In this document: positions 1,437 to 64,000 of the stretch, in pieces
Numbering within the stretch: position 1 is the stretch's first letter
Layout of the letters: every line of letters starts with the position of its first letter
Assembly (NCBI GenBank): GCA_032718475.1
Contig: JAUCBJ010008092.1
Location: 48,315-112,314, forward strand
Origin: Nemertoderma westbladi
Lineage: Eukaryota > Animalia > Xenacoelomorpha
Reading direction: 5' to 3'
Length of the DNA: 64,000 nt
Position numbers and translations under genes: made by a program
Notes under the pieces: generated by a model
The model's database searches: none
What the model saw: the letters and a program-made list of their open reading frames with translations, nothing else
What the model was told of the DNA's origin: nothing

Positions 1437-1689
1437 AGCGCGAGGCTGCATTTACTTACTTCCTATTACAGTATTAGGCCTACTGTATTACCGGTCAACC
1501 GGTAACATAATTTTGACACCGCTAGCCTACCACTGTAGGCCCTATACTTAACGGACGCGGTACTTAAAAGTTTAGTTCATACCAGACTGAGGTTTAAATA
1601 TATGGATAACGACGGCCAGGTGACGGGAACGTCGAGAGGTGAAGGTGAAGGTACCGGTAGCAGTGCCCGAAATTTGAGTGTAAAGTTGG

Positions 1690-7298: not shown

Positions 7299-7430
7299 AG
7301 GAGTCTTATCTAGTAGTGAGAGCGATGTTAGTGAGTGTGAGGACACACGTGGGGTTATCACTAGGAGCGGCCGGATTGTGAAACCTCCAAAATACTATGG
7401 TTATTGAGAAAATACAATTGCAGGGGGAGA

Positions 7431-7763
7431 TGTTGGGTCGGCGGGTGCAATTGTGTGTGGTGAGAGTAGGGCGATAGGTCGGGGAGTAGGTGAGGACCTA
7501 AGGCGAGGAAGGATGGAGAGTGATAGTTAGTAGAGAGTGTGGAAGTGTACCGGTAGGCGGTAGGGCAGTAGAGTGGTACTTGGGTTGCGCGGATTAGGTT
7601 TATTGCTCGGATTCAGTAATTGGTTATTGTTAATTGTGTATACTGGTTTATATTGTTATATTACATATATATATAATAAATGATTGCATTGAAGCTCAAA
7701 GATATATTGATTATTTAAGTGACTGGGAAGTTTGGGAGAACGTTCGTTGTATTCGATGCTACA
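7431..7763 (+). repeat. 3' LTR of Gypsy-type element
   Basis: Copy of 1102-1436, preceded by a PPT and followed by the ACTT TSD. Confidence 0.95.
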
Positions 7764-8068
7764 ACTTGCGACGTGTCATTGGTGGGGAACCGTTATTTGG
7801 TGAAGAAGGTGGGGAACTTCGCACTTTTAGCCCTTCAGCGGCGGAAGGGTGATTTCCAAATAATCTGAAAGGGCCGCGACTGCCTGCACATTTGGTCCAC
7901 CAGTGGATGTTTCCGGTTGAGGTTCGATAACCGTAGTTGCCGCCGGAATGGAATAGTGTAATAACTTCACACCCTTTCGGAGTACTTTAGCCAGTGAAGA
8001 TCTAGAGGAAGGGGTTAACGTGGATTGTACCGCTTTCTTAAGTATGGCGGCAGTGACCGGTCCTTTAA

Positions 8069-13300: not shown

Positions 13301-13808
13301 ACATTAATAGCACAAATAAAAACAATAGATACGGTTAGTAGAATGCGTCCCCGCGATTGTCGTAAAATATGCTACCTTGTTCTCTTAGTATATTTCGCCG
13401 AGTATAGGGTATGATGAACGAACTGTTGATGGGCTAAGACCGCATAAAGTGGTTGCAATCGACTGAAAAATTAGAAAGGCAGGAAAAGTAATTTGTCGGG
13501 AATAAAGTGATATCTCCCCCCACAAGGAAATATACAACTTTATGTGTTCCAATAATGGAAATATGAATAATAAAATAATATGAATAAAATGAGGCCTACA
13601 AAACAATTAAGCATTTACTTAATATACTATGAAGCCAAGCAAATTAGATACCGGTAATTTACAGTAGGCAGTCTTGCAGTAAGATTTTTTACAGTAAATA
13701 TGAGATTCCGTCTATTATCTGATCCATAAAGAAAGTTGAGTGCCCAGGTCACCGGGGGAAACATAATAATAAGTTTGTTAGAGGATCTGTTGCTGGTGAT
13801 CAAAAAAG

Positions 13809-25191: not shown

Positions 25192-27019
25192 CCGCTCCAA
25201 GGGAAATCATACAATGTTTCCCTCCAATTGTAGAAGAGTATAAGGTGATGTATACAAACAAAATAAATTTCTTTCAAATAATCTAAATACTTAATACTAT
25301 AATCCTACTATTTACAAAATATTGCTATAGATATTGCATAATGAATTGCATACAAATTAAATTTACAAATATTATCTCTCTCACTGTTTAACGATTATTA
25401 TATACAAATTAAATTTACAAAAAATGTTTCTCGTTCGTACTACATAATGATTACTACATACAAGATCAAATATATAAAAATTTTGCTAGGGCAAGTGAAA
25501 GGAGTAAGCCAAACCCGCAGGTTTGTCTCCCCAATCACTTCCTTCGCCTCTCTCATAATATAAATTCAAAACAGCTCAACTAGTGTATATGAGTCTAGTC
25601 GGATATTTCTAAAATGCTACAATATACATCAGAGCAACGATGATGTATATATCTAGAGTCTGTCGCCCTGTGATACGATGCATTATCGACCCGCTCCTGG
25701 GTTCTTCGGGCTCGCTCCTCTCTTTCGCCCCCTGCCCAGATACACCAGTCGTCTGCCAGTCGACTCTGTTGACGTGGTCCGTGAGGCGTCACTCCCCGGA
25801 ACCGGCGACGATGTTCCCTGAGCCCCGACAGATTCCCGACTCGTGCTTCTCCCTCGGCCTCGTCCCAATTGTCGTGCTCCCGTGGTCGCTTCTGCCAACT
25901 CTTCCTTCTGCAGTTGCACCGCTTTCGTCCTTCTGGGCTCCTCCCCGAGGCGCACCCGCGAGGCGGACGTGATCCACCACCCCTGGGGCCAGTCTGACTG
26001 ATGTTATTATCAGACCGGGCCGGGGGATGGCCCGATGCTTCCCGGGTTCAATTTTCAATTCCCCGATCACACTGGCACAGCTCGTCGAACGTGTAGCCAG
26101 ATGGGCGGCTACTGTCAACTTACTGTGGCCTGACTGTACATTGAGCCAACTCAGAGAGTCAACCGGCAGGTGGGCCAGTCGATAGCGATCGAGCACCAAG
26201 GTCGCCCTTGGGCCTAACCGACGGTCTTGTCCCATGTGGGCTTGCGCTACCCAACATGGAATTTTGACTCGTTTTCACCTGCCTCGCCTGCAGTATTGAA
26301 AAACAATACTGTCTTGCTCAAAAGCTAAGAACAAGTAACCACTTACCAGTCACTGTACACGTGTACTCAACAGATGTTCACAATATCAAGTACACAAATT
26401 GGACACATACCATGCACACACAGAGGACATAATCGGTAAAGACTAAAATCGGGGTCAAAATCAGGAGGGACTAGTTGTATCGACTAGAGAGAACATGAAA
26501 GTCGAGAGTACCTTATTTTGCCGTCAGGGCAAAATAACTTTGTGTGTACAAAGTATGCTGGGGCGCAGTAAAATATGGTCCTACTAATACCAGTGGCGAC
26601 TGAACCAACTGGCAAGGTTTCCCACACTCACTCGCAGTGGCCATACACACAATCACGTGTACTCACGTACCCACAGCAACAGAAAACTCAAAGGCCCAAA
26701 CAAATCCCAAAAACCAATCAGCTGAACATGGAGACAATAATATATAGTATCAAAAAAACGGAACAGCTGATGGCCAAAGGAACCCATCCGAGCCCCAAGT
26801 AAACTGTCACTGATCGCCCACATACAAACCACAGTTCACACCACATGACACCACAAATCACGCCATGCCACCACCCCTACTGTGTACAGGACTGGCAGTA
26901 CGGCAACATGCCGACTAGACGGAACCACGGCACCATGGCAATTCATGGTTCGCTAGACACGAGGGCCATCAGTATCTCCCTTGCACTTAGAAAAGGAAAT
27001 TTAACGTGCCCCCAGACCC

Positions 27020-30000
27020 TCACGAGTCAGCCGCCGCCTGTTGCGCGCACCCTATAGAGACCTCACCTCTTTCAGTACGCGCCTTCTCCGACGCTCCCTG
27101 CGCCTTGTGCTGCAACCTTTGCGCTTCTATAATAGAGTGATAGTGGTCGTCCTTGACTTGACGCTTGTCTCGGACCTCTCCTCCTGGTTCTTTCCGCGAG
27201 CCTTGAGCTCCAGCGGTCGACGTTGTGGTCGCTGCAATCCTCTGTTCCTGTATCCTCTCAGCGGTCAATGACCCCACTGGCACATGAGTCAACAAGAATT
27301 CGTTGCGGTATTGTATAGCCGCCATCCTCCAATCACCTCGTGCGCGTACCACTTTTCTAGTCTCCGAAAATACACCCTTCGTGATTCGATCGCAAATAGC
27401 AACGAAGTTCCAAGTGTATTTGTTATCCATATTCAACTGCCTGAAGTATTCTCGGACTACGATAACTCCAGTGTTCTGTGGAAGGTCTTGAGCAGTTAGG
27501 ATGAGCTCCTGATATTGTGGTAGCGACTGTAGATATGGCTCGTACGCAACATGTGATGGGTCTACCGCCCAAAATCCATATCCCGCCTTGAATGGTAACC
27601 AACGCATCTGCGCTTGAATATGGTAGTCAGCCACACTCTCCCACTTATCTAACATCTCCCGAAGTAGGTTAGCGCTATGGTTTTGGAAGGAATCATCTCG
27701 CAGCTGACATCTCGCGCTACAATGTCCCTTTACCCCACAATATCCACATTGAGAAATGAAGACGGTGCACGTGTGAAACGAATGGTCGGTCTCATTACAC
27801 CAACGACAGACCTTATGCGCCGCCTCTACTACCGCGTCGCACGACTTTAGATTGTGCCTTGTGCTGCCGCACAACTTGCACCTACGCGCTTGTGGAAACC
27901 AGGCCCTCTCGTATATGAGGTCTCCAATCGGTTTTGCACTTCCTTCTTTCCCAATGTCTAATACGATGTCGTCCTCTCCGGTCAGCGGTTGTCGATCCGG
28001 AACAAAGTAAACATCCTCGCCCTTGTCCTCTATCTCCAATATTTCCTCCCGCGTTCGTTTCGGATATGTCTTCTCCACCGGAAGATCTACTCCGAACACC
28101 TCTACTAACGTCTCCGGCCAGCCCTCCTTAACAGGTCTATCAGCCTCCGAGTGGAAGGGAGTACCAAACCCGCGGGTTTGATTCCCGAACCACTTCTCCA
28201 AAGCTTCTGGCGTCGGATATTCCATCGACGGTCGGTCTCCCAAATCTCCGATGTTCTGTCGATATACTCCTTCGAATATCGCTAATCCTCTCCTAACCAT
28301 CAACGTATTCTCTAACGATTGGTTGAAGAACGGGGTTAAGAAACGCTTCATCACGTCGGATTGGATTCCCCCTTTCGAGCGAACGTATTGATCTCCTCCG
28401 AATACCAATGGATGACGCTTCAAAACTCGCGCAACGATATCCGCTAATAAACAAGTCACCGTGTTCGACTCAAGCACCAAATAATATTGTAGCGACGCAC
28501 GGGGTGGCGCGCAAATGTTCCAATACACTAACGCTTACCGCTTGAAGTGGGATTTGAACTCCGCTCCTGGTGGCGTGTTGTATTCGCCATACGCCTCCTC
28601 GTATTTCTTCTGTGTCTTTAACTTAAAGTCCCAATTATACAATAAGTGTGCTATGAAGCCCATGCCAGTCTTGGAAGAGTTGGGATACTCCCTATAAATT
28701 CCAATATCCTGTGCCCATAGCAACAATAGCTTGGTGTCGACAAACGGTCTCGGCAATCTATCTTACAGATCAGTCATGGCGTTGAAGTCACTCTCCAAAT
28801 CGCTCTGGACTCCCGATCCCACCTTGACGTAATCTTGGTTGAGAATAGCCTCTCTAACTTTCTTGGGTAGCATCCTGGCGTCGATACGCTCCGCTCCGTG
28901 CATACCTCCTCGCCTGCATACCTCCAAAATCTGCTCCCTAGGATCCTTCCCCTTCCGATATTGTGTCGTTATGATGGGCTCTGGTCTCTCTCGATCCGCC
29001 CTCACACGCATAAACACATGAGTCACACCATCGGCCGCACGAATCTGAATGCACTTGCTAGTCAAACATTCTTGATGGGACCCTCCTTCATTGTCACAAA
29101 ACATCACCCTCCAATCTTGCAGTGATTCCTCCGTTTTCCTCCACTGACGCTGAATCTCGTCTGATGGGGTCCACATGCGCTCGATAGCCTTGTGGTCATC
29201 ATATCGGGTATAAGAACCCTTCCTCCTCAGCCACGTCTGGTCTACCTCCTCGTCATCTGGGAATGTAGCCACCGCAACCCATACCTTGATGTACTTATCC
29301 AACCATCCAAATAGTTTGCTCTCCTTCCCCGGAGTTCCAATCTTATCCAATGTGTCGTAATCTGTGATCTGCATTGGGACATCACGCAAGAACTTCGCGC
29401 ATAAAACTTCCCGTAGACAGTCAACGTTCCAATGATCCGCCATTCTTACCATCGGCAAGAATCGTATCGCTTCTCGCGACTCCGGATGATCTACTAATAT
29501 CGCAGGTTCGGTGCCATCGGAATAATACACCGGTCGGGGTTGAGATACGACCTGTGGAACAAATCCGGTCACTCTCCTCGTCTCCTCTTGATGTCTATCC
29601 GCGGCCTTATTATACTCCGCTATCCTGTTCTCGAATAACTCTTTCGCCTTCGCCGCTCGCTCCTCCTGCCGCAACGCGTCTATGTCGTCCTGATGCTCAG
29701 GCGTGAGGCTTCTCACTCGGTGAGGCGAAGTAAACGCAGTCCAGGGACTCGAGAGCTCCAAACCCGCGGGTTTGGTACCCGAGTCCCGTGCCGCTTCGCG
29801 CCGCGCCTCTAGATCCTTATAGGCTCGGTACAGTGAAATGGCCGCTGCCGTCTCTATCAAACTGGGTGTCGAACAGGGTTTAATCTCCGTATACGGATCT
29901 AATGTCGTAACGGTCGGCGTAATGGGTCTCGGAGGTCGCTTTCCGCTGAAGTCGATACTGATCATCGGGTTGCTCATCGGGTAACCTCCCTCGTTGTATC

Positions 30001-30430: not shown

Positions 30431-31303
30431 GGACCGCCCATGGTAGTAAACGTTAGAATCTTTACATCCTGGTCACGCGAATGGTAGCTACGCCTCCTCT
30501 CTGGCAGTAAATCCTCTGCGCGGTTGCGCTCTAATATCCTTCTCCATTATGCCCCGCGTATATACATATATATATCCCAATAAGTGCCGTTACGTAACCA
30601 ATTACACTGTGGGTAAATCAGTTAGATGTCGCCGAAGGACAGACCTCCCGAACCCTCCCGCCTTCCAGCAGTTCAGGTTCGACTCTCTAGATCCCGTCTC
30701 TTCCTAACTAACTATCCTCTAACCTATTCCCATGCATAGCGCAAAAACTTTGGAGATAAACTGGCCGTGACCAACTCACTTTTTGATGCCCAAACTACTC
30801 CCATTACTCGTACTAGACTACAGTAGTTAGAAAGGACTATAGCCACAATACTCGACTATACCAAACCCACAGGTTTGATAATCGAACATCACACATCACT
30901 GCAAACTACTGAGTGGGGTCCATGTACGCCTCTGGTGCTACTAACCTTTAGCACCTTAGTTGCACTGTTGGCACCAATCCGTGGAAGTTGCTAAACTCAA
31001 TTTACACTCCTACGTAATATAGCCATCACCATGGTTTCTAAATGCTATTTTCCAGGCTTCACGACTTTTCAAATTACTGTTTATCTATAGACGAATTCTA
31101 AAACGCGTCTATACACAGCGTCTGGAATTGTTTTGGGTTCACTTCTAATTTTTAAAATTTTTAATTTTCCAAAAATTTTGAAAATAAAATTTTGTTTTGA
31201 TACCCACCAGACATAACTCAACGCAAATCACCACAACCCCGCTCCTATGCATTTCCTAGTATTTGCATACGAGGAATGCATACGAAGTGAGTTGCGTCCA
31301 ACA

Positions 31304-34300
31304 CTAACTCTGTTTTGAGGCAGGAGACAAATTATAATCTCCCGTCTTGATGCGTGTCTCCTCTAATAACACGATATCTTGGACCGGTCTGTCCAAGGTG
31401 TGTAAACCATTAGTTTTACACTTTTTTGGGTGCGGACACTTGCACCTAATTTTCACAGTGACTGTGCGCACTATGTTTTGCACGTCTGGGTGTATGTGCA
31501 AGATCACTCCAGTCTCCCAATACTTTATCTTGACAATTGGCTCGGTTATCAGTACGTAATCTCCCTTTTGGAGACTCCGAACCGTTTTGTACCACTTTGA
31601 TCTGGTGGATATGGTGGGAAGATAATATTCCCGCCAATATTCCCAGAATGTGTACGCTACTAATTGTGTCACTTTCCAGCTTTTACGACTATATAGGTCG
31701 GCACTAATGGGTTCTGATGCCGGCACAAGAAACACTGGACTCTGCATTAGCAAATGATTCGGCGTTAATGCAACACCGTCTGGCAACATAGCTATCGGCC
31801 TCGAGTTTAATGTATGCTCGATTTCAATGAAAGCTGTAACCAGTTCGTCGTCGGTAAGTTGTTTGTTCACAGGCAATGTTTTGGCAATGGCCTGTTTTAC
31901 AGAGCGAACTAAACGCTCCCAACTTCCTCCTCTCCAAGGACTTTCTGGAGTATTAAATCTCCACTCTACTCTTTGCGGAAAAAGTGCTGCAGAAATTTCC
32001 TTATTCTGTGCTGCTTTGTGAGTCGCGTTCAACTCGCTATTCCCTCCGACAAAGTTTGTACCCTTATCGGAGTAGAACGCCTTTACTAGTCCTCTCCTGG
32101 CCATAAATCTCTTTAAGGCCAGGAGCAGAGATTTGGTCGACATGTCTGCCACACGCTCGATATGTATGGCTCTACTAGCCATGCATGTCAGTAGCAGACC
32201 CCATCGCTTGTGGGTCAGCCGTCCACTCTTTGCTTCAATCGGACCAAAACAATCCACCCCTGTGTTCATAAAGGGTGGGTCATATGCCTGCACTCTCGCT
32301 TCCGGGAGTTCAGCCATCTCCTGTTCCAATACTCTGGCGTTCACTCTCTTGCAAACCAGACAGGCATCATACATGGTGCCTACTGCCCTGCTTGGCTGCA
32401 ATAGAATGAATCGCTGTCTCGCTGCCGACAAACAGTGTAACTTTCCCGCGTGATGTAACCTCTTGTGTATATCCCATAGAATCGCTCTTTGCAATTCTAT
32501 TGGGTGACTAGGGATTATCACTGGGAACCGAAACTGTGAGTTTATGTCGACAGTCTGGATTCTCGATCTATGACAAATCAAACCCCTATGGATTAATGGA
32601 CTCCATTTTCTAAGGGGTTTATAGAGAACTGGTCGTTGAGCCGATAATAGATGGAATTCTTTTGGGAAGGCACACATTTGATAATTTTTCAAATGCTTTA
32701 ATTCCGCTTGATCAATCTCATCCTCTGTCAGAGGTTGTTTCAATTTCTGAATTCGCTCACTATTGGCGCTCGATGGTTCTCTCAAATGTTTCGAATGTTT
32801 TAAACAAAGGTACGAAACGTAGCGGCTTAACCACGCAGTTCTTTTACAAATTGTCAGCCAAGAGGCAGACGAATATAGTAATTTGTCATAAATACTACAT
32901 GGCTCTAATGCCAGCAACGGTTGTCCGCTAACTAATGGAAGTTTCGAATCCAAACCCGCAGGTTTGGAAACCAAAGGCTCCATTTTGTCGGTCATTTTCT
33001 GTCCGTCACTTACCAACTGTGACTCTGCTTTAGTCTGTAAGGGTGGTTTTATGTCATAACTTACCCTTCCTGACCTAGTAGTCACGTAAGTCTGTTGGTC
33101 TGACAGGTCTCCGGGCCGCTCCAATGACTCTTCAGGCCGCTCCAATGACTCTTCAGGCCGCTCCAATGACTCTTCAGGCCGCTCCAATGACTCTTCAGGC
33201 CGCTCCAATGACTTGAGTTTGGCTTTAGACTTTGTATTAGAAACTTTCTCCACCTTGACTTCTGCATCTTCAGGCATCGGATTGGTCACTATCTTTAGTC
33301 GCTCTGGCCAATGTTCCTGCGTCCTCGTTAGAAAATCAGGTCCATGCAACCAAAACTCCTGAGACTCTTCCTGACAGAATTCCGCCGGCATTGCACCTCT
33401 CGAAGTTATGTCGGCCGGGTTCAACACTCCCGGACAATGTCTCCATTGTTCCTTCGTCGAAAAGTCAACGATCTGAGCGCGTCTATTTGCCACAAATGTC
33501 TTTAGTGCAATATTGTCGGCCGCAATGTATACTAACACTAAGGATGCGTCCGTCCAATAGAATAAGGTCAATGTCGTGTCTAACTCCTCAATTATCTGCT
33601 TACTTACCTCGACCGAAACTACAGCCGCCTGTAACTCTGCATGAGGGACAGTCATGTATTTGACCGGCATTGTCTTTGATCTAGAAGCTACAAAGGCCGT
33701 CTCAAACTTGTCCTGACTCACCTCTCGGCGAAGGTAGGCTACCATACCAAAGCCGGTGTCACTTGCGTCACTGAACAGATGCAGTTCGAGATCAGCTGGA
33801 AATACCAGCTGATTCGGAAAGTAGGAACGGGGTACGTCTATGTTTTTCAATAGATGTAACTCGGCTTCCCACTCCCTCCACTGCTTTGCATGTATAGGAG
33901 ATATTGGTTCGTCCCACTCTACGTCGGACAACCAAATTTTCCTCATGCACGCTCGTGCCTGTAATATAACCGGACTGATAAAGTTCATCGGGTCAAATAG
34001 TCTACTTAATGTCGATAAGCAAATTCTCTTTGTCAAAACTTTGTCTGGGCTACTGGGCTCAAATCTAACTCTTACCTGGAACTTGTCTGAGTTCGGATTC
34101 CAAGCGAGTCCCAGTACTCGCGCCATGGGGATTGGTTCTACCCCCAATTCTATGTCTCCGCTCCCGCGATCTTTCACCGGGAACGACTCTAATAGGGCCT
34201 CCGAGTTTGTAGTGAACTTGGTCAGAGGAAAACCCCCTGTAGCCAAGCACTCTTGCAGGCCGTGAGCCACTTCTATGGCTTGTTCCGCCGTGTCCTTGGA

Positions 34301-40483: not shown

Positions 40484-41107
40484 CACGTTCGTGGGGACTT
40501 CGCGCAGCACGTAGTCGGCAAGCCTTGGCATACGGTTCATATAGAGCAAATGGGGCATGTCTAGTTTGAACCCCATATCCCATGCTATAAATGTATTCAT
40601 TCGATATACAATCATATGTTAATCCGCTAGGTGGTGTCAAATTGTTATTCTGCAATTTTGTACTTACCAGTGCAGCACTGTACAGCAGTACCGTACCGGT
40701 AGGCCTATGTCATTACTTCTGAGTCTCTAGCGGATCTCCAATTAAATGTCTTAACTTTTCAATTTCGTAAAAGATAGACTTCATGATTCTCTACAGGCCA
40801 CCAAAATTTCAGCTCAGGAAAATGAGGCCTTCCCGAGAAATTTAACATTTTCTAAAAACCACAAAATCTGTCGTAGCTGACGTCAGACTGCATGATTTTT
40901 CACCAAACTTTACAAACTTTCTAAACTTTCTCTCTACTACTTGCCTACTAAGTTTGGTTCAATTCCGAACCAGCGATGCCGAGAAATTCGCGTTCAAACA
41001 TTTACCAGACAGACGGACAGACAGACGGACAGACAGACAGACGGACATGCCCCATTTACCCTATATGAACCGTATGCCAAGGCTCGCCGACTACGTGTCT
41101 CGCCCCA
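40484..41107. mobile_element. Non-autonomous DNA element with about 55-bp inverted repeats and (GACA/GACG)n tract in the BEL leader
   Basis: CACGTAGTCGGC...GGGGCATGTC (40508-40561) inverted at 41044-41096; similar ends recur at about 48471 and 51620-51690. Resembles MITE or Helentron/DINE-type elements. Confidence 0.6.
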
Positions 41108-43730: not shown

Positions 43731-46118
43731 ACTTTGGTCCGTGATAGACTACAAACCGTGATTAAAACTTTTTTAACAGTATCTGCAACATGTAGAATAA
43801 AATGAGTACCATCACAATCTGGAAAGAAAATCATTGGTGTTGTATTAATGTCACAATGATTAGTTATGTACATGACAGCATCATATGATTGAGGCTGATG
43901 CAGCTTTGTGCATAGTGCAGAATCGATACAGCTAATAGATCCTTCCATATGTCTCTCCAGGATAGAAAGAAATGAGTCAATGATTAGGGTAGAGAATAAA
44001 TTTCTTCCTTTGAAGAAATTCCAATCAGGATTGGAGGGTTTTAAGAGAACAAGAGTTCCATTGGATGGTCTAGTGGTTGCTGCAATGACCACTGCTTCAT
44101 CATGGAACCCTTTACAAATATCTGGAAAGATGTCAATGTGTTCAGCAGACCCTCCCTGAATTTCATCAACATCATTAGTACTAGGGCTATGAGGGGAGTT
44201 GTGTGTATGTGCTGAGTGATACTGTGGTTGTGTTCTGCATACCCATGTACCGTCATCCATTAAGTCATGTACTTCGACCTCACCACAATGAAGGTTGTCA
44301 GGGTATGGAAGTGTATCTGTGTGATGTCTCGGAATCGGGATAGGAGAGGAGTATGTCAGTGTCTGAGTGGTGTTTATACATGTTAGTGGTGTAGTAGTGA
44401 GTAGTGGAGTAGTAAAAATAGACTTTGGAGGCTCAACTAAAAAATTATTAATGGTACTACAGTTTTGAGCTGCCCTAGTATAAAGGGGCCTACTCCTATA
44501 TTGAGAATTAGTAAAGTTAATGTTACTATTTACAAAAGTCTCACAAACTCCAGGTTCTGGTGCTGCTCCATCGTACATTATACACTCCCCAATACCACCA
44601 TGGACTTGGGGAGTTGCAGGGGAACCATTATCCGAGCTGTAAGGAAAGGAATCCATGATCATAGATTGGATTGTTGGTATCTCCGAGACAGTAGTCAGTG
44701 ACCCTGAGTCTGGATGGATCACTCTGGTTCATTACTCATCCATGCAGATTGGGTTATTTGTCACACCAGACTCAGTAATCATTGACCCGGAAACTAGAGC
44801 AACTGTTATTGCTTCTGGCTCTGTACCTGTCCATCCAGATTGGGTTGTTGTTCCTCCAGATTCGGAAGTTGTCAACCTGGAACCCAGATGGATCGCCGTC
44901 GTTCTGGGTTCACTACTTGTCCATCCAGATGCAGATTGGGTTTCTGTTCCTCCAGATTCGGAAGTCGTTGACCCTGAACCCAGAAACACCGTCGTTGCTA
45001 TGGGTTCGGTACTCATCCATCCAAATTGGGTAGCTGTTTGTCCAGATTCGGAAGTCATCAACCCTGAACCTGAACCCATAATTATCGTTGCCGCTACGGG
45101 TTTGGTACTTGTCCATCCAAATTGGGTAGCTGTTCATCCAGAATTGGAAGTCGTCGACCCTGAACCCGGAATGACCGTCATCACTACCGTTTCAGTACAC
45201 ACCGATGCAGTTTGGGTTGTTGTTCCTCCAGATTCGGAAGTCGTTGACCCTGAACCCGGAAAGACCGTCGTCACTACTGGTTTGGTAAATGCCCATCTAG
45301 ATTGGGTTATTGTTCCTCCAGATTCGGAAGTCGTCGACCCTGAACCCGAAAAGACCATTGTCACTACCGGTTCGGCCTATGCCCATCCAGATTGGGTTGT
45401 CATTCCTCCAGATTCGGAAGTCGTCAACCCTGAACCTGGAAAGACTGTCGTCACTACTGGTTCGGTACACGCCCATCCAGATTGGGTTGTTGTTCCTCCA
45501 GATTAGGAAGTCGTCAACCCTGAACCCGAAAAGACCGTCGTCACTACCGGTTCGGTACATGCCGCAGTGCCCATCCAGATTGGGTTGTTGTTCCTCCAGA
45601 TTCGGAAGTCGTCGACCCTGAACCTGGAAAGACCGTCGTTGCTACCGGTTCAGTATGCGTCCATCTAGATTGTGTTGTTGTTCCTCCAAATTCGGAAGTC
45701 GTCGACCCTGAACCGGGAAAGACCATTGTGGCTACCGGTTTGGTACGCGTCCATCCAGATTGGGTTGTTGTTCCTCCAGAATCGGAAGTCGTCGACCCTG
45801 AACCAAGAAAGACTGTCGTTGCTACCAATTCGGTATACGCCCATCCAGATTGGGTTTTTGTTCCTCCAGATTCGGACGTCTCCGGCCCTGAACCCAGAAT
45901 GACCGTTGTCACTACCGGTTCAGTACATGCCCATCCAGATTGGGTTGTTCCTCCAGATACGGAAGTTGTTGTTGACCTGGACCCCCGAACGACAGTGGGC
46001 GCTGGTGCCCCTGGTTGGATTCTTGTGCTTCTTGATGGCGACAAGCCATGGGTCCGGTGCTGGGCCCTTGCTGCTGGTGTGTGGGAGCTTCTTTTGGCGT
46101 GTGCTGAACTGGTGCCAT
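43731..46118 (-). pseudogene. Probable LINE ORF1, 5' part: Thr/Ser/Gly-rich repeats then N-terminal half of a Ulp1/C48 protease domain
   Basis: IIDSFLSIL...CIDSALCTKL...IFFPDCDGTHFILHVAD; the frame continues across the ACTTT TSD into 22959 and below. Confidence 0.7.
44690..45990 (-). repeat. Coding minisatellite, 90-bp unit, about 14 copies
   Basis: Unit encodes about TTSESGGTTTQSGWAYTEPVVTTVFPGSGS; the proximal copies share a frame with the downstream protease-like ORF. Confidence 0.9.
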
Positions 46119-50498: not shown

Positions 50499-52269
50499 AA
50501 ATGCAGCTGCAATGCAGCATGCCGATCCTAGTAGTACCCTTCCCAACCACCAATACATTACCGCGACATCTACAACCCACGGAAGGGTAGAACGAACTTA
50601 TTTCCAATCGCACGTTCAATATGCAAAGCCAGGTGGTGTATACTGTATAGGAATATAATCAACGCCCTACTCGTCTTAATTATTATAAGCGTCGTTGCGC
50701 TCGTCCTGTTTTGTATTTAAATATATTTCCTAAACGCGGACTGACAATCTTTATAACTATCGATACGTGCAATATGCGAAACCAGGAATGGTTTATAGGA
50801 ATATAATCAACACAGAACGCAGTACTAAATGCAGTCGATGCAGTAATGATATTCAAATAATTAATTTAATACCAGTACCCTCTGTTAATGCCTCAGTGTA
50901 AAAACTTAGACAATTCAACTACACGGAAATCCCATAAAAAAAATAAGCCTAATATTTATGAGGAAAAAAACAAGTATGGATATAAGCCTTTTGCAGTGGT
51001 AAAATGTTATTGACTGACATTTATTAAATGAGATCTGTCAAACATGCAATTCACCGATAATAGACTGAAAGTAGGGAAGTCAGATTTCCATTTCGTTAGC
51101 TTGCTATGGCCAATCTGTTTACCTGCCTGTACACATGTGGTTAATTACATTCGCATTCCCATTGGAGAGTAACTGGCTGTTCTATACACACACATCCTTC
51201 CCATTCTATCTACCAGCACCGATCGAACTTGGATGTTAACCAATAAATCAGCAGTATTTAATGAGAATCAATTTTTTATGCCGTTTTAATTACTTTAGAT
51301 CAATTAAAGACACAATTATTAAAGCAAATCACTTGAACTAATTAAAAACTATAATAGAATGGGGTATGTGGATTACATATGTATAATTTTTAAGTATAAT
51401 TATTTAAATCTTATACTGTAAAATAATTAATTTCCTTTAAAAGGCAGGTTCAAAATGCTGTTTTTACCGTAATCAACTTAATTTACTAATTAACTGCTAT
51501 TATCTTAGCTTCTCGAAGGCCACACGGAAAAAAACACTGCAAAAAAAGCGACAGAACGACAGAACGAGAACGACAGGTTTATTAATGGTACCACTACGCT
51601 AAGGCTCACTCACTTCGTGGCTCGCCCCACAGGTTGATTAATGGTACCACTACGCTAAGGCTCACTCACTTCGTGGCTCGCCCCACACAGGTAAATAATT
51701 GAATGGTTCTCAAATGATGAATATAAGAGTCCAATTCGAAGTAGCCGCGTGCATCAAAACACCACCGAGCTAAAATTATCTTTATTTGCTGATTTCATTT
51801 CCGATGTCAGTTTTAATATTTGGTGGATGTAGTCTGTCCGCCCGTCGGTTATCTGTCAGTCTGCCGTAGATTATGACAGACACGTTAGAAGACAGCTTTT
51901 CCGCGATCACTAGAGAACTAAAAGAGATCTCTCTAAGCTGTTTTCAGATTCTAAATCCCCAATACATTCAGCTCTAGATGCAATAAAAAATCAAATTTCT
52001 GAATTTTTTCGAGCGGGGGGGGGGGGGTGTTGCACCCTGCAGGGGGGGTGTTGGGTTGCTACCCCACCCTTAACTGTGTTCAAGACCAGTCCAGGAAGTA
52101 TGGTTTTTTTTCATGGAAACAGACCCTACAGGAGGCCCCTAGGTCTACTGTATGTAGGTAACATACAGTACCTGTACCAGTACTGAATCTCTACATACCT
52201 ACCTAGACTGAAAGCAATATGATAACTTAATAAATTAATTGTTGTGGGGTGAGTGACGGTGAATTAAAT

Positions 52270-52993
52270 ATATAATGTAGATAGGACAATATGATAATGC
52301 GCTCCATAGCGAAGAATATCAACCGACCCTGTTGGGGCTCGAACCTGGTACCTAGGTTTCAAACTTCTGGTTATCATCAGCCGGGTGAGCGTACTGAGCT
52401 ACCAGACCGGATGAATATTTCACTATGGAGTGGGAGATCATATTTAGGCCAACTAATCACTCAAAGGAAAGTACAACGTTATTCCCGTGCTCTGCCAGAA
52501 ATGGCAACCATGCCTCAAAGAATGACTAGTATACGGTGTTGTAGAAACCACTGTAACCCAGTATTGACTGGCCCAGGCTGTTAGTTAATAATATTACATT
52601 CAATTCGTACATATTTCATCATACATATTTCATTCAATTCACATCATACTGTACAATTCACTTATTATTGTTAATTAACAGCCTGGGCCAGGCATGCGGG
52701 GTTACAGTGGTTTCTACAACACTGTATAGTGTATAATAGTTATTCTTTGAGGCATGGTTGCTATTTCTGGCAGAGCACGGGAATAACCTTTGAGTAATTA
52801 GTTGTCCTAAATATGATCTCCCACTCCATAGTGAAATCTTCATCCGGTCTGGTAGCTCAGTACACTCACCCGGCTGGTGTTAACCGTAAGTTTGAAACCT
52901 AGGTACCGGGTTCGAGCCCCAACACGCCAACAGGGTCGGTTGATATTTTTCGCTATGGAGATCATTATCATATTGTCCTATCTACATTATATA
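52270..52993. repeat. Fold-back element with about 320-bp arms carrying Pol III A/B-box-like motifs
   Basis: 52270-52590 is the reverse complement of about 52670-52993; TGGTAGCTCAGT (52850) and GGGTTCGAGCCC (52908). Confidence 0.8.
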
Positions 52994-55364: not shown

Positions 55365-56259
55365 GTGGCGACGCGTACAAAACACGACAAATTTCACCCG
55401 ATCAGGATCCGAGGAGCGGATCCGAAAACTAAGGAAGCGTTCTCCATTTATAAACTGTTCTATAAATGTGGAGGATGTATGCGTGCGCAAGACAACGCGA
55501 TTCCTATGTGCTTGAACCCGGAGAACCCCAAGCCGATATTAGCGCATTGCCCACACCACCAGAGTCTGCGTTACCAAGAAGGTGGATACCCTTTGATGAA
55601 TCCGTACCACTGTTTAAGATGAGTGGACCAAACGTGGGCGAGATTGTTGTTTATGAACCCAAATTAGTCGAACCAGACGTCTACAGTATGGTAATAGATG
55701 AATCTAATAAGTCGACACAAGAGAAATGGGAAGCATTAAGCCTCTATAGGGCGTACAAGGTGTACGAGAAAGGTGAGATCGAGGAGTTTGGCGGAAGGCT
55801 ACCATTTTATTGGATATCCTATGATCAAACCGAACCTAAGGAGATGACACCCAAACTCTTCGATAGTATAACCTTTGCTCAGCTTTGGTCGCAGAGACTA
55901 CAGATACCACACGTCGAGATGACGCGAGAATCTCAACCCCATCCTACCAAGGCGGTAGTACCGGTCGCGAGAACAACCAGCTTTCCTATTAGTATACCGA
56001 CCCGAGAGGAGACAACCTACGAGATCCCCATAGTTGAACACCCGGAGATAATTTCGAACCTGGATTTCCTCCCATCGGTAACGTTTGGCGATGTGTTAGA
56101 GGCGGTGGAGTTGCATATGCATAGAACAATAGTTCAGAAAATGGTACGCAACGTGCCTCCACATATTACCGACTTTAAGGAAGGGGATCGCGTGGGGACG
56201 GATATCGCACCTTGCATCCTGCGAGGGTATCTAGCAAAGATGATTCGATTATGGATCGG
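55365..56259 (+). pseudogene. N-terminal fragment of the BEL accessory gene family (one frameshift), truncated at 56259
   Basis: FSIYKLFYKCGGCM...CPHHQSLRYQEGGYP vs FSVYKLFYKCGECM...CPAHQFLRYNEGGYP of 28763-30430; SLYRAYK; KMVRNVPPHITDF / KFLRDVPMQITDY. Confidence 0.85.
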
Positions 56260-56559
56260 TGTTCGCGGTATTTCAACTTTTCATAACGCGAGTTGAATAT
56301 TTTTTGTATTTATTTAAAATTGATTATTCCGATATTACTACTGGGTGCGGGACCATGGGTTTTGGGCACATTCAATGAACTGGGGGGGGATTGATGGGCG
56401 AACTTTGGGGCAACTTACAGGGTACGGGAATAATTTCATAGTTATAAGGGCCAGGGGTGGGAGGCAAAGTTAAGCAGTATTCAGGTTAGCCTGAGTACTA
56501 TTAGGCCCTGGCCAACTTCCTGCTGCCTGTAGGGGTGGATTTGGTAATGCGCCAGGCCT

Positions 56560-57480
56560 AAAGGACAAGGACTGCCCTTAGCGGTCCCTGGCCAACAGCA
56601 GTTATTACGAGACTGAAAAGAACTCGGAACGCTGACTGCTGCTTGAGTCAGGGATTCGCGACGGGAAACGACAGCCCCCTTAGCTAAGCCGTACTGGTTC
56701 TCGATGACCGATCCCTTCGGGGTTCGCGAGGGGTGGGACGGACATGCGAAAGGGTTGGCCGACAAACGACTGCCCCCTTAGCTAAGCCGTACTGGTTCTC
56801 GATGACCGATCCCTTCGGGGTTCGCGAGGGGTGGGACGGACATGCGAAAGGGTGGCCGACTTACAGAGGAAGGGTTTGACGAGGACTGCCCTTAGCAGTC
56901 TCGGGTCAACAGCAGTTATTACGAGCCTGAAAAGGACATCGGAACGCCGGCTGCTTGTACCAGGGATTTGCAACGGGAACCGAAGACAGACCCCTGAGCT
57001 AAGCCGTACTGGTTCTCGATGATCGTTCCCTTCGGGGTTCGTGAGGGGTGGGATGGACATGCGACGGGGTCGAAAGACAAAGGACTGGACGCTACTGGCC
57101 TACCGACTGTTCGGAGCAGTTTCTCGGTTGCCGAAGCGACTACGAACCTGAATAAGGACTCGGAAAGCCTAGGTGGTTGGGTCTCTGCGATGAACTGACG
57201 GACCCGTAGCTAAGCCGTACTGGTTCTCGATGATCGAACCCTTCGGGGTTCGGGAGGGGTGGGACGGATGCTCGAACGGGTCCACCGACACGACAGACTC
57301 CTAGCCAAGCCGTACTGGTTCTCGATGATCGATCCCTTCGGGGATCGGGAGGGGTGGGACGGATAAGCGACAGAGTCTACCGACTGGGCCGACCCTTAGC
57401 CAAGCCGTGCTGGTTCTCGATGATCGAACCCTTCGGGGTTCGGGAGGGGTGGAACGGACACGCAACAGGGTCGACCGACA
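56560..57480 (+). ncRNA. Array of structured RNA modules (6 of motif A, 3 of motif B) upstream of gag
   Basis: Conserved about 62-nt core with cUUCGg hairpin, closed in each copy by a different complementary stem. Confidence 0.7.
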
Positions 57481-58115
57481 CCGACACTACGGCACTAAGA
57501 CCAGGACTGGGGAACATTAGGTAGGCTAAAATCTGGGGAACATTGTGTAGGCTAAAATCTGAGCGAACAGTGGGTAATTAAATAATATACTGTAGGGACT
57601 TATATTGTCATGTGTAATTATTGTGAATATTTGGTGTATATTGATTTGGGGAAGCCCAAAATTATTCTCAATCAGGTTTCAACTGTAGGAAGTTACATTA
57701 AAGAGTATATCCAACCAATGCGACTTTTCCTCAACCGCAATCCTGCATTTAAGAAATTCCTCCTTCTCCAAATTCAATATCCGGTGACTGGGGGGGACTC
57801 TGTGGTCTGTAAAGTCACGTATCCAGCATCGGCGTTTTTCCCCCCTGGTGTAGGGATAACGGCAACAAAATTGAGAATAATTACGGTCAATTTTGACAGG
57901 GTGTCAAAATTGAGAGCAAAACGCGGCCAACTTCAACTGGTGGAAGTTGAGAATCCTTCAATACTCTTTAAAACTCTCTACGTGCTTGCCAGCACCCACT
58001 ACGAGGAAACTCTGGTATTTGAGTTAAGACGAAGTCGTGGTTTTATTAATCAACAAACTCGATCTAACCAACTCGTAGTCGGCAGATCACATATTTGGAG
58101 AGTTGTTAACAGGGA

Positions 58116-58307
58116 ATGGAAGTATCGATCACACCCATTGATATAATCCAAGTTGAGCCAGGAATCTGGCACGTCGAAGTTGAAGTACAAGGAACGAACG
58201 TCGGACGATTCAGGATTACCGTTCGGGTGGTCCAAGCTGAGTACAATACCTACGAGGAACTGTTTTATGACATCGCGTATCTAGCTATCGACGAGGCGCT
58301 ACAATGA
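58116..58307 (+). CDS. Small ORF overlapping the gag start (ATGA)
   Basis: 63 aa; its TGA stop overlaps the gag ATG at 58304. Confidence 0.35.
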   Translation: MEVSITPIDIIQVEPGIWHVEVEVQGTNVGRFRITVRVVQAEYNTYEELFYDIAYLAIDEALQ

Positions 58308-59605
58308 CGACCAATAACGTATCCGATACCGACGAGATGGATCACCACACAGACTCGGAAGCCGACGAGGTACCAAACGTCAAAAACATGACCCGTCGGC
58401 TAGGGGCTCTCAAAGGCGGAGTAACCCGAGCGTATCAACGGATAGAGAAACAACTCAAGGGAATCAAAATCCCCCTCAACGAGATACAAACTCAGCTTCA
58501 AAGTATCCGAAATATCCTACAGCGGTACGAAAGAATGATACAGGCGTACCAAGAGCTAGTTCCCTCCACTGATCAGGAAAACTACCCCAAGTTAGAAGAA
58601 CACGTTGTACATCTAGATGGGTTCCGCAAACAACACCGGAGGACCCTCAGCCTTGTGAGAGGCTATGAAGAACAGTACTACAAGAGAGCTGAAAGAACAG
58701 ACGCGGAATCAGTACGATCCTCCAGCATCAGGACAGCAGTACATCGAAAGAGAATGGGGTCCTCGAGAAACCAGCACTCCAGCGCTCGGAGCACGGTGTC
58801 CGGTTCAGCACACAGCTCTCAAGGGGGTCAACCACTCCGAGACCAGCTACGAGAACAGAAGGCATTAGCCCTCAAAGCTCGGATGGAAGATGAGTACGTT
58901 CAACTGCAAACCGAACAAGATATATTAGCCACCGAAATGCAAAAACAGGAGGCCGAACAAGAGGTCGAACGGCGGGCCGAACAACATAGACAGGAGGTCG
59001 AACAACGGGCCGAACAACATAGACAGGAAGCTGAACAACGTGAACGAAAGGCCAAACAGGAGATCGAACGACGGGCCGAACAACATAGACAGGAAGCTGA
59101 ACAACGTGAACGAGAGGCCAAACAGGAGATCGAACAACGTGAACGAGAGGCCAAACAGGAGATCGAACAACGTAAATGGGAAGCAGAAATGCGTAAACAA
59201 CATGCCGAGGCCCAAGCGATTCTCACCCACAAAAAGAATGCGGATATGGCGAAACTCGCGGAATACGAAGCCGCACTTATAGAACGAGATATTCAACTAT
59301 ACGAGGACTGGGAAAGGGATATAGATCAGGAATATGAGCCAATCCCGGTACCGGAATTAGAGAAGTCATTTGCACCAACAGCGGCGAAACTTCCGAAACC
59401 CGAGATCACGCCTACCATACAGTCTACGTTATCGGCACAAGCACCGGTGTTCCATCCCCCACCGGTTACACTTAAAAATGAGGAACCATATTTCCCGTCC
59501 AACCCCACGGCAACGAGTGTACCCAAGTACAAGCCTGAAAGGGACTCGGAACGGGACGCCACTCCCCGATCCAACAATCCGTTTACATCCCACCACAACC
59601 CGTAG
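58304..59605 (+). CDS. gag: BEL gag N-terminal ORF with EQRAEQHRQE coiled-coil repeats
   Basis: RRLGALKGGVTR motif, coiled coil, LSAQAPVFHP. Confidence 0.85.
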   Translation: MTTNNVSDTDEMDHHTDSEADEVPNVKNMTRRLGALKGGVTRAYQRIEKQLKGIKIPLNEIQTQLQSIRNILQRYERMIQAYQELVPSTDQENYPKLEEHVVHLDGFRKQHRRTLSLVRGYEEQYYKRAERTDAESVRSSSIRTAVHRKRMGSSRNQHSSARSTVSGSAHSSQGGQPLRDQLREQKALALKARMEDEYVQLQTEQDILATEMQKQEAEQEVERRAEQHRQEVEQRAEQHRQEAEQRERKAKQEIERRAEQHRQEAEQREREAKQEIEQREREAKQEIEQRKWEAEMRKQHAEAQAILTHKKNADMAKLAEYEAALIERDIQLYEDWERDIDQEYEPIPVPELEKSFAPTAAKLPKPEITPTIQSTLSAQAPVFHPPPVTLKNEEPYFPSNPTATSVPKYKPERDSERDATPRSNNPFTSHHNP

Positions 59606-62254
59606 TCGCATCATCATTAAAACTCCACCTATCATTGATCCATCAAGTATGGGAGAGAGTGCCGATAATTATAACCCTCCTAGTTATTCCAGGTCGGACG
59701 ACGTCGGCATTATCCGGGCATTGGAAAACCGCCTCTCCATGCCCAAGATGGAGATCCGCGCCTTCGAAGGAGATCCCGTCGATTACCTCAGATTCAAGAA
59801 ACAGTTCTTTGCGCAGATCGGATCAACGGACATAGCCGACGCACAGAAATTGGTATATTTATCGCAATACCTGGGTGACAAACCACGCCGAATTATTGCA
59901 TGTTTTGAGGGAGGTTCTCATGAAGCATACTATGACGCATGGAAAACTCTAGACAAAAGATACGGAAATACCGGGACTATAATTAATAAAACTCTAGAGA
60001 AACTGATACAAGACGCGGGATCACTAGGGGACCCACAGAACCTCCAGGAATTCTCAGATTCCATGAAGGATGCCTACTACACTCTGAAACCCTTAAATAA
60101 GGAGGACCAGGTGAACAACATTCTAAACCTCCGACAGATCGCCCGGAAGTTCCCCGGATGGCTACAAAGTAAGTGGGCCTATAAATGCGTAGATCTCCGG
60201 CGCAGACATCCAGATCGAGACCCCAGCTTCCTTGAAATGTCGGCATTCCTGGACGATATCTCCGAAGCCATGAATGACTCGATGTTCTCGAAACAGAGTC
60301 TCGCCAAGTTGGACGCAATGGAGAGCAATTACCAGAGCAGGGCACCCACTCCAAACCCAAGATTCCCCCCTACTCCCGTGAGTACGATGGCCGTCAGTAT
60401 GGCTGAGGACTCGGATGACGAGGATTACGAGGAACCGACCTTAGCAGAAGAATGGGCATGCTACCTAGCGAATTGGGCACCCAAAAGGGAAGGCACCACA
60501 GCCTCCCCTATATGTCTCTTCTGTGGAGAGAAACATAAATTGGAATTCTGCGGAAAGTTCCAGTTCGCCGAACTCGTCCCACGCTTCGAGGCGATAATGA
60601 AACACCGAGGATGCTTCCGGTGTCTTGGAACGGGTCACTATGTTCGGGATTGTGACCAAAGATCGTGCTGTGCGGTCTGTAACGACCTACGTCATCACAC
60701 GCTCCTCCACATCCCCGCAAACTTCGATTTCACTACCCTCCCCTTTCGGATCGAAGCCAAGCGAAGAGGAGAAACGAACCACGTTTTCAAAGGAACCCGG
60801 ACAACCCAACGGAGAGAAACCAATCCGTTTAAAATCTCCACCGATAAACCACAAGTAACAAATATTTCAGCCACGATTAATCTTATAAATCGCCGTTACA
60901 TGGTCTTCGCAAAGGTAATCCCAGTAAGGATTCAAGGAGTCGGCAAATCCCTGACGACGCTCGCGTTCCTTGATAACGGGTCTGACGGAACCATCATCGA
61001 CCGGGATTTCCTCGAGCAACTCGGCCTAGAATATGAACCTTGTAAACGGCCCATACAAACCATCACCGATAACAGAGAGGTAGAGTCCGGGGAGGTGCAA
61101 CTCCAGATGGAAGGAGTAATGAAGGGCTACGAAACGGTTAAGCTAACCATCAAGAACGCCTTGGTACACACAGACCTCCGAGTGCGGTTCCGACAATCAG
61201 CCGAGTACGCCCCCCTCATACAATTGGACCGAGACGATGTAGATCTGAGGTGTCCGCAGTTGGACGTAAACCGCATCACCCTACTGATCGGACTTGATAC
61301 ACCGGAATTACACATACCAACCGGAGATGTCGCCCGATCCATAAAGAAGGATGACGGCTTTTACGCTGAACGAACAATAATGGGATGGACCCTCTGCGGC
61401 ATCAAGGAAGAAACTACTGACACCTATACATACCTTCCTAAATGTCAGATTAAAGAAAATGCAACATCCGTGGGTTATTGCTCAGCTACAGGCCTCGATG
61501 AGGATTTATTTCCTTGAGACCGAAAAAACCCAGCAAGAGATGACTAAATGCTTTAATCTAGAGACCCAAGAGTTTGCTGAAAAGGACGAGAACCCGTCCG
61601 AGGAGGATCAATATTGTATGGACGTCCTTGACCAGGCCAAGTTCAAAGACGGACATTGGTGCGTCGCCCATGCTTTGGTGGCTAGTAATGTTTTTGATGA
61701 TAATAATGACGTGGATAACATTGACACCATTAATGGGAGAGTATGGACTAATCTGCCGTAATACCCGGATGGCGAACGCCTCAGTTGAGTCCCTCACTCC
61801 TAACCACCTACTGGGGAGACCCAAAACTCATGTTCTCCCAGAGACAATGTTTCCGGATCCCAACGATATCGCGAGACATACAAACTGGAAGAAGGCCCAA
61901 GCATTGGCAGCGCATTGGTGGAGAATCTGGGCCCAGGAGTACCTCATAACCCTCCGGACCAGGAGGAAATGGAACAACACCTACCGGAACGTCGCAGTTG
62001 GCGACATGGTACTAGTAAAAGAAGATCTCAAAGACCGCGTTCACTGGCCTGTGGCGCGGGTCGTGACCATACACCCAAGCAAAGACGGACTTGCGAGGAC
62101 TGTGACGATACGAACGGCAAAGGGCCACTACCAACGCCCTATCCAGAGGCTGTGCCTTCTTGAAGGCAATGATAGCGGTGACTCTACGAGAGGTGATAAG
62201 TTCCCTACTCAAGATCCTGCTGCGGACATTGGTGACAATGATAAATGCGTTTGA
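59606..62254 (+). pseudogene. pol: BEL capsid + knuckles + protease, then a deletion joined to the integrase C-terminus
   Basis: FEGDPVDYLRFK, CLFC..H..C, CFRC..H..C, CAVC..HHTLLH, FLDNGS; frameshift about 61510; jump about 61670-61785 to LTPNHLLG...WWRIWAQEYL...RPIQRLCLL. Confidence 0.9.
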
Positions 62255-62532: not shown

Positions 62533-62942
62533 GTTGCGTGCGCAGTTCGGGGCGTAGGCGGTGTAACGAGTCCAGCTGTAGATCCCGGATTGCCGCGCAA
62601 CACCCCCTCTATCCCGTTATTCTGGTGGGTCCATGGTGCATCCACATGACTTCGACGATAGGGGGTTTTATGTTCTCAGTCGCGTTATTCTGGTGGGACC
62701 GTTGCGTGGATTTTGGGGCGTAGGCGGTGTAACGAGTCCAGCTGTAGATCCCAGAATGTTGCGTAACCCCATCCCACATGACTTCGTCGACTGAGCTTTA
62801 TGTTGTTGGGAGTGTTATTCTGGTGGGTCCCTGGTGCATCCACGTGACTTCACTCCCAGCGTCTTCATTGTCCGTTACGTGCGCAGTTTGGGGCGTAGGC
62901 GGTGTAACTAGCCCAGCTGTAGATCCCAGATTGCCGCGTAAC
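62533..62942 (+). ncRNA. Three covarying hairpin repeats between pol and the downstream ORF
   Basis: Core GGGGCGTAGGCGGTGTAACGAGTCCAGCTGTAGATCCC at 62533-62601, 62701-62767 and 62874-62942 with compensatory stem changes. Confidence 0.6.
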
Positions 62943-63499
62943 ACCCCTTCCACAACAAAGATTTCCCAAAGAAGATGATTGAATGTAGTTGGAAATGATG
63001 AAAAGACTCAGACAACTCTACTATAAACCGAATGATGACGCGTATGCTGATGAAAATGTAATGATGCGCACCCTGGTGCTGCGCTTATAACAATGATGAT
63101 AGCCGGGGGGCTATAACCCCAATGATGGTGTGGAAATAAACAAAATTGAGAATAAATGGTGGAACTAAATGTGTTGAAATGTGTTGAAATAAATGAAATG
63201 AGATGAAATAATAAAGAGAAATGAAAAAAGACAAAAAAAAGGTATAAAAAAGTCTAAAGAAAAGAATTGGAAAAAAGAAAAGGACAAAAAAAGTCATAAA
63301 AAACTGGTTGGATATTAATGTATAGCTATAGTAACTGTAAATGCTGAATGTATTAGCAATAAGATGATAGATGTCTATATAGCAATGTTATTAATAAACT
63401 GAACTAAAAATAAACTGAATTATTCTGCAATCGCTATAGTTTCAGACTTTCTGGACTTATAATTAACTGATCTAATTTGTAACGGATATAATCGTAAAT

Positions 63500-64000
63500 A
63501 TGGACCCAAATCGCCAAATTATCGGCGAATTACGTAACACAATAGATCTACTGGAATATTCGCAACCCGGATCCCCTGACTTTGATACAAATTGGAGCAC
63601 CCTGCTAAATGAGAACGTGCGAGTCGTTAAATTCACCGGGCGAGAGGGACCGGATTCAAAGTATCTACGAGCCCTCCGGTTAGCCGATGCTAGTACGAGA
63701 CTGAAAAGAACTCGGAATGCAAAGGCAACCGGAGGGGACGAGTCGTCGTTTTGGGAAACATTCCGACAAAGCGTCTACAAATCCCAATGTTTGATCTACG
63801 ACAACGAGGGAAACGCGACACCCACCTCGAAAGCGATTACGTTGGCGAGATGTCAAAGTTTCGTCAACGACAAGAGTACGTACCTCGCCCACTGGGGAAA
63901 CCTGTCGGAGTGTACTGCGACGCTTCGAGAGGAACGCATATCGATTATCCAGAACCGCGACGACTACCAGGATAAGTACGGGGTGAAAGAATACGGTCGA
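63500..64000 (+). CDS. Downstream ORF of BEL element 2, 5' part, open to the window end
   Basis: ATG at 63500 and 167 stop-free codons (MDPNRQIIGELRNT...QDKYGVKEYGR); not in the supplied ORF track; same position relative to pol as the accessory gene of element 1. Confidence 0.65.
   Translation, partial: MDPNRQIIGELRNTIDLLEYSQPGSPDFDTNWSTLLNENVRVVKFTGREGPDSKYLRALRLADASTRLKRTRNAKATGGDESSFWETFRQSVYKSQCLIYDNEGNATPTSKAITLARCQSFVNDKSTYLAHWGNLSECTATLREERISIIQNRDDYQDKYGVKEYGR

Follow-up and report, generated by a model that had tools for sequence, protein, structure and literature searches.

Tandem predicted kink-turn hairpins in the inferred LTR of a BEL/Pao retrotransposon from Nemertoderma westbladi

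What is a small hairpin, repeated six times, doing in a BEL/Pao retrotransposon, and is it the RNA or the DNA that is being preserved? The locus lies in a window—by which we mean the whole stretch of DNA analysed, 64,000 nucleotides long—of repeat-rich animal DNA from Nemertoderma westbladi. Two BEL families are present in the window, the element that carries the array and an intact neighbour on the minus strand, and each has orphan accessory ORFs and a set of motifs private to it. We lean towards reading the array as an RNA signal that binds protein multivalently and serves in export and packaging, similar in kind to the response elements RxRE and RcRE.

The first-pass annotation, made from the sequence alone, reported six copies of a conserved core on the plus strand, starting at 56681, 56779, 56996, 57207, 57302 and 57397; all six starts are exact. 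This 27-nt core has 0–2 mismatches in each copy, and no further core within 6 mismatches was found on either strand of the window. A covariance model built from the six units (hereafter unit A) and run on the window scored them at 98–110 bits and returned no seventh copy—the next-best match reached 12.7 bits (E=0.4). Three units of a second hairpin, B, had been overlooked between the A units, and the order of the interleaved units is B-A-A-B-A-B-A-A-A. The array opens its A series with A1 (56674–56759) and its near-identical duplicate A2 (56772–56856; 98% identity), followed by A3 (56989–57071), A4 (57200–57283), A5 (57295–57378) and A6 (57390–57473). Joints in run contigs hint at a variable number and order of units among genomic copies, with the reservation that repeats can produce such joints.

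Each A unit, folded alone, forms a single unbranched hairpin. Its lower part consists of an outer stem, a UA/GAA-type loop, a 2-bp GC helix and a 4x4 loop; its upper part of a CCGU/ACGG helix, a G•U-rich helix, a GAUGA/GA junction, a 7-bp stem and a cUUCGg cap. The four differing outer stems that had been reported for the later copies were all found in place, and A1 and A2 close with CCCT/AGGG plus a bulged GCC/GGC. The weakest folder is A3, which has two U·U pairs in its apical stem; A5 carries two-sided changes in both outer and apical stems. When 56473–57600 is folded without constraint, three of the six A units form, and local folding yields five of six. A SECIS element was considered and rejected (helix II is 7 bp, and there is no apical AA).

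The B units share a core of ANUAC opposite a GGAA internal loop, which we take to be a loop-E-like module, with a CUGAAA-type apical loop. Three lie in the array: B1 (56581–56660), a long hairpin with a z-score of -6.0, B2 (56895–56975; z -2.2) and the diverged B3 (57116–57190; z -0.7). Two others, also on the plus strand, recur in coding regions; B4 (59505–59575; z -0.3) has its core at 59529 inside the gag N-terminal ORF and a weak flanking stem, and B5 (63672–63742; z -6.45) has its core at 63695 inside the element's orphan ORF (63500 onward). B3 and B4 are weak folders. B5 has lower-stem flanks that pair despite being unrelated to those of B1. B4 and B5 are in different reading frames, and hairpin D of the neighbour likewise occurs in coding DNA in differing frames (see below); both B and D are therefore preserved at the nucleotide level. 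A third hairpin of the array's family, C, is tripled between pol and the accessory ORF (C1–C3, plus strand, 62533–62944; z -3.5 to -4.9) and shows two-sided change in 3 of 25 pairs. The possibility that B is loop B of a hairpin ribozyme was rejected, as it has no loop A partner.

The first-pass annotation placed the array in a BEL leader, which is half right: most likely it lies inside an LTR, upstream of two ATTAAA signals. The inferred LTR (56261–57867, plus strand) is 1607 bp long, runs from TGTT to AACA and belongs to a high-copy BEL/Pao family; the array's element has one inferred LTR and no target duplication in the window, and the limits given here rest on contig break points. The start resembles the 3' LTR start of the intact neighbour, in which a 5-bp target duplication sets the ends of the LTRs, and the fit of record 24 from run X5 begins at 56260; this record, which contains portions of a single B and a single A unit, may be a collapsed assembly. 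At the other end, contigs of runs X1 and X3 both depart at 57867, directly past AACA, and in X4 a single low-depth contig runs from 57885 into gag. A 5'-truncated, frameshifted accA homologue (55368–56296, plus strand; tblastn E 2e-30 over two frames, BLASTP E 2e-11) runs into the LTR start. This ORF, directly upstream of the array, is homologous to one of the neighbour's two post-pol accessory ORFs and so marks the 3' part of an element; we infer that the LTR is common to a truncated upstream copy and a pol-deleted downstream copy.

Within this LTR, the only TATAA (56443–56447, nt 183) is a candidate promoter. An ATTAAA followed by a GT-rich stretch (57577–57582, nt 1317) is the candidate poly(A) signal, and a second ATTAAA starts at 57697 (nt 1437). 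The spacing is equally wide in the neighbour's LTR, with TATAA at 539 and AATAAA at 1403. A poly(A) signal with a GT-rich stretch is a conserved LTR feature, and long R regions have been linked to stem-loops, in work that did not model BEL/Pao (PMC3601003). Lying inside the LTR and before the ATTAAA signals, the array would sit at the 3' end of element RNAs; for it to be at the 5' end too, the TATAA at 56443 would have to be the promoter. With the transcript presumed to start near 56470 and end near 57600, the array probably fills an R region of ~1.1 kb and thus occupies both ends of the genomic RNA. If the promoter lies further downstream, the array would fall in U3 and be found at the RNA 3' end only.

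The same position suits a reading that we consider unlikely, namely that the array governs the 3' end or lifetime of the RNA by suppressing poly(A) addition in the upstream LTR, by shielding the RNA from decay in the manner of an ENE, or by giving rise to a stable LTR-derived decoy RNA of ~1.1 kb. Some 100 nt separate the end of the array from the ATTAAA/GT-rich signal at 57577, and a long R region requires, by retroviral logic, that poly(A) addition be suppressed at its 5' copy. There is an ENE precedent in an LTR retrotransposon (PMC12501189); however, neither A nor B has a U-rich internal loop, and B also occurs in gag and in the accessory ORF, distant from the RNA ends. Quite unlikely, in our estimation, is an IRES-like or shunt element that carries ribosomes to gag past a long leader. 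With a start near 56473, ribosomes would have ~1.8 kb of leader and 17 AUGs to pass before reaching the gag AUG at 58304, enough to block scanning, but the array stops about 830 nt ahead of that AUG, and the neighbour's leader is equally long without such units. We also know of no IRES that is built from identical units six times over, or from copies inside ORFs.

The host of the array is a BEL/Pao element, with a gag N-terminal ORF and a gag-protease ORF (58304–61517, plus strand; DUF1759, zinc knuckle, aspartyl protease) followed by an integrase C-terminal remnant (61562–62254, plus strand; DUF5641). No matches to RT, RNase H or the integrase core were found in this copy of the element. DUF1759, the zinc knuckle, the protease and DUF5641 are common to described BEL/Pao elements and those of the window, and the neighbour adds Peptidase_A17 (PMC3118150). 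Published BEL/Pao LTRs have a median length of 383 and a maximum of 2,427 (PMC3118150 supplement 9), placing the window LTRs of 1.6 and 2.2 kb in the upper tail. Unlike the usual BEL/Pao element, those in the window have a separate gag N-terminal ORF, orphan non-env accessory ORFs and private RNA motif sets. The gag N-terminal ORFs of both elements end in CCR-UAR-U (59600–59606; minus strand, 37490–37484) with the next ORF in the +1 frame, a possible sign of programmed +1 frameshifting or splicing. No tRNA-type primer site is apparent after the LTR in either element; a hairpin is found shortly downstream of each LTR (57866–57912; minus strand, 41525–41405), the 3' arm repeating the LTR-end/primer-site junction and the 5' arm complementing it, so self-priming is possible. 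No tRNA genes were found in the window.

The neighbour, with 2.2-kb LTRs, has an RT region whose nearest named relatives, from corals, anemones, urchins, nemerteans and molluscs, are 35–42% identical. Hairpins A, B and C are all absent from its family, and its LTR contains neither an A-like nor a k-turn motif; a k-turn is therefore no general need of these elements. In their place the neighbour has hairpin D, a fixed 16-nt apical hairpin on lower stems that are unrelated and yet pair. D has five exact sites on the minus strand (32950–32965, 30861–30876, 29758–29773, 28164–28179 and 25509–25524), spread over pol, intergenic DNA, both accessory ORFs and the 3' UTR, and is a candidate dispersed packaging signal. 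A 590-bp insertion with 54-bp terminal inverted repeats, likely a MITE, occupies 40508–41097 in the leader of this element. Elsewhere in the window are a second likely MITE (a 725-bp near-palindrome at 52269–52993), a ~90-bp repeat in tandem, both strands of which contain open frames (44663–45996), and a Gypsy-like element (1102–7764) with 336-bp LTRs that are 99% identical and an interrupted pol.

After pol, the neighbour carries two orphan accessory ORFs (minus strand, 30472–28763 and 28534–27020). The array's element has one in the window (63500–64000, plus strand), and a third, fragmentary copy of the accessory-ORF pair is located at 12155–10644 on the minus strand. A large inverted repeat, foldback-like and with ~160-bp subrepeats, encloses that accessory-ORF fragment; it spans 8065–16104 and pairs 8065–8978 with 15205–16104 and 9661–10323 with 14542–15206. 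By eye, three CCHC-like cysteine clusters can be recognized in one accessory ORF. The accessory proteins gave no homologues and no Pfam family in our searches, Atlas matches were all under 0.9, and single-sequence models reached pLDDT values of 35 and 40.

Is the fold of the hairpins under selection, as the first-pass annotation proposed? Two observations support it: flanks pair with their own partners, and loops stay conserved while the outer stems of A drift (identity among A units is 0.96 in the central arms vs 0.59 and 0.70 in the two outer-stem strands). When flanks were swapped among copies of A, only 3 of 720 permutations paired as well as the true arrangement. The corresponding numbers are 2 of 120 for B, 1 of 120 for D (where the test covered the 5 exact of 7 matches and excluded the mismatched ones at 37854 and 35226, which fold differently), and 1 of 6 for C, a value that carries no information. 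The closing stems of all six A units comprise 5–8 contiguous pairs; in null trials 5 pairs arose in 14%, 6 in 7% and 7 in 1%. In the alignment of the six copies 91.4% of 162 cells are paired, a share that falls to 33–57% when pairing partners are shifted along the alignment; the alignment is matched by 2 of 500 shuffles, a count from six related sequences only and hence not a probability.

Of the 27 A pairs, 5 show two-sided change: four belong to the outer stem and the fifth to the apical stem. The 11 central pairs, being invariant or changed on one side, contribute no covariation evidence. The apical-stem swap described at first reading stands in part: it is two-sided in one of six copies, but three have U·U at that pair. 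At 57428 the majority letter is U in contigs of runs X1, X3 and X4. Folding z-scores of the A units are modest (-1.05 to -3.71, with A1 and A3 about -1 and A4 at -3.7) and are lower on the plus strand in all six; together with the cUUCGg cap and the many G•U pairs, this points to RNA rather than DNA. We accordingly give little credence to an account in which the repeats act as DNA, for instance as a U3 enhancer, or are recent neutral tandem duplications that fold by chance. Tandem repeats are common in LTRs, and the near-identity of A1 and A2 (98%), the z-scores about -1 of A1 and A3, and the variable unit number and order suggested by contig joints would all fit such an account. It fares poorly, however, with own-partner flank pairing in three motif families, with a strand asymmetry that is accompanied by G•U pairs, cUUCGg and non-canonical swaps, and with the unrelated yet pairing flanks of B5 (z -6.45).

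What the conserved centre of A might form had been suggested at the outset, and the suggested kink-turn pattern was borne out: all six copies pass the descriptor, with a GAU bulge and then tandem G•A/A•G. The descriptor by itself is not rare, with 5.25 matches per shuffled window (20 shuffles) against 7 in the real window, and the six of these that are A copies amount to one motif. In all six copies -1b:-1n and 4b:4n are C:G; 3b:3n is C:C in A1 and A2, U:U in A3 and U:G in A4, A5 and A6, so that both sides vary and the pair is never Watson-Crick. A further non-canonical swap, A•G to G•A, is found in A6 beside the CCGU/ACGG helix. Nearest-neighbour energy folding of A favours a 5-nt-bulge register. 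When contigs are aligned to copy 6, U accounts for 274k of 359k (X1), 244k of 346k (X3) and 2,190 of 3,061 (X4) of the depth at 3n, figures that are hints only and not copy numbers. Because U has most of the contig depth at 3n, U:U is probably the common family state of 3b:3n. A U:U pair at 3b:3n is of the box C/D type, and a U at L3 suits the L7Ae pocket.

Judged by sequence, then, the six A units are supported as predicted kink-turns that fit k-turn folding rules. A Watson-Crick 3b:3n pair would impair k-turn folding, and a C at 3b or a G at 3n folds well in ions; the Actinomyces-1 k-turn tabulated in the same study has three key pairs identical to those of A1 and A2 (PMC8191799). The protein 15.5K binds and folds box C/D and U4 k-turns via G1b and G2n (PMC5579392). 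With these known kink-turns (box C/D, U4, Actinomyces-1) unit A shares the 3-nt bulge, the tandem G•A/A•G, the C:G pair at -1b:-1n and a non-Watson-Crick 3b:3n (PMC8191799, PMC5579392), and its GAUGA resembles box C. Unlike them, A occurs in six tandem copies in a retrotransposon LTR, is closed by a UUCG hairpin and has a weak C-helix with two G•U pairs. The non-bulged strand reads NGA within 20 nt of the C-like box. A box C/D snoRNA was considered and rejected: A has no guide sequences or box D partner arrangement, and the array has no Rfam match.

The first-pass annotation also mentioned a ribozyme. That A cleaves itself as a ribozyme of a new type, either unaided or docked on B and perhaps to make primers, is highly improbable: highly conserved internal loops on variable outer stems, precedents in retrozyme LTRs and Penelope elements and the lack of an apparent tRNA-type primer site after either LTR speak for this idea, but no Rfam ribozyme matched at E<=10, the hairpin is unbranched with alternative G-rich pairings only and no conserved pseudoknot, the plus strand contains none of the core words of seven ribozyme classes, and six cuts within R would destroy the template. 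Known ribozymes (hammerhead, twister, twister-sister, pistol, hatchet, hairpin and HDV-like) were rejected on core or junction features; the minus strand holds three short HDV-loop-like words without context.

We return to the reading of the array as a multivalent protein-binding signal. Conserved loops, exchangeable stems, copies both in tandem and dispersed, and family-specific sets resemble protein-binding cis signals, and the protein-binding or packaging element that the first-pass annotation had in mind gains support, as a reading, from conserved loops on exchangeable, scattered stems. Under this proposal A would kink and bind a host protein of the L7Ae family (15.5K/Snu13 type). B, dispersed along the element, may serve as a family-specific address for an element-encoded protein; candidate readers are the Gag nucleocapsid or an orphan accessory protein. 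Tandem copies would increase avidity, as they do in retroviral response elements, and the resulting docking platform would mark the element RNA for nuclear export and packaging. More speculatively, and with fairly low confidence, we suggest that these are complex BEL/Pao elements that combine long R regions, orphan accessory genes and private RNA codes—in the array's family, k-turns would recruit the host snoRNP/spliceosome protein 15.5K or a relative, and dispersed B units an element-encoded Rev/Rex-like protein—and that may have arrived at export and packaging independently of retroviruses.

Has such an array been described before? The Rfam check proposed with the original annotation gave no window match at gathering score, with chance-level matches only for the array and the C region at E<=10. 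Exact-pattern matches outside the window, one in a metagenome contig and 9 in prokaryote genomes, are ascribed to chance: all ten are without the UUCG hairpin and are 17–38% identical beyond the seed, and the best A-model score among them is 20.8 bits, compared with 98–110 for true copies. Viral contigs gave no matches for two patterns and the gag protein. Five short motif words are absent from 9 supplementary files of PMC3118150, in all 2.0 million characters, among which the sequence file is perhaps partial. Full-text searches of the literature outside subscription journals and Repbase reports turned up no paper describing k-turns, or arrays of structured repeats, in the LTRs of BEL/Pao elements. 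Our verdict is that the RNA modules are real and undescribed, that structured cis elements in retroelement LTRs are already known, and that the function is putative.

RNA selection, export and packaging in BEL/Pao elements are essentially unstudied in the literature searched. The four discrete covarying modules, three in one family and one in its neighbour, are short enough to be synthesized as substrates for tests. If true, k-turns arrayed naturally in tandem within a mobile element would be a new setting for this motif and a possible co-option of a conserved host protein; with family-private motifs near orphan accessory genes, one could also ask directly whether invertebrate retrotransposons evolved Rev/Rex-like regulation.

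Several known systems place structured RNA in comparable positions. Retrozymes and Penelope hammerheads share with the array a location in retroelement terminal repeats (PMC4918200, PMC4209133), whereas the array has no hammerhead core (CUGANGA...GAAA is absent) and no Rfam match. The ENE of the Copia element Evade is, like the array as we read it, a structure that acts in cis close to the 3' terminus of the RNA of an LTR retrotransposon (PMC12501189). Its poly(A) triple helix requires an internal loop rich in U, and A and B have none. The closest comparison is with two retroviral response elements that bind accessory proteins for export: the RxRE of HTLV-1, 255 nt in U3/R (PMC4810248), and the RcRE of HERV-K, 433 nt in U3 (PMC11379458). 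In contrast to these, the array consists of repeated modular hairpins over about 900 nt and belongs to an invertebrate BEL/Pao host. The likeness is one of position and accessory ORFs, with no similarity of sequence or fold seen: RxRE and RcRE are structured LTR RNAs at the 3' end of transcripts from elements that encode accessory proteins, and the array, in its probable LTR, would occupy a comparable place.
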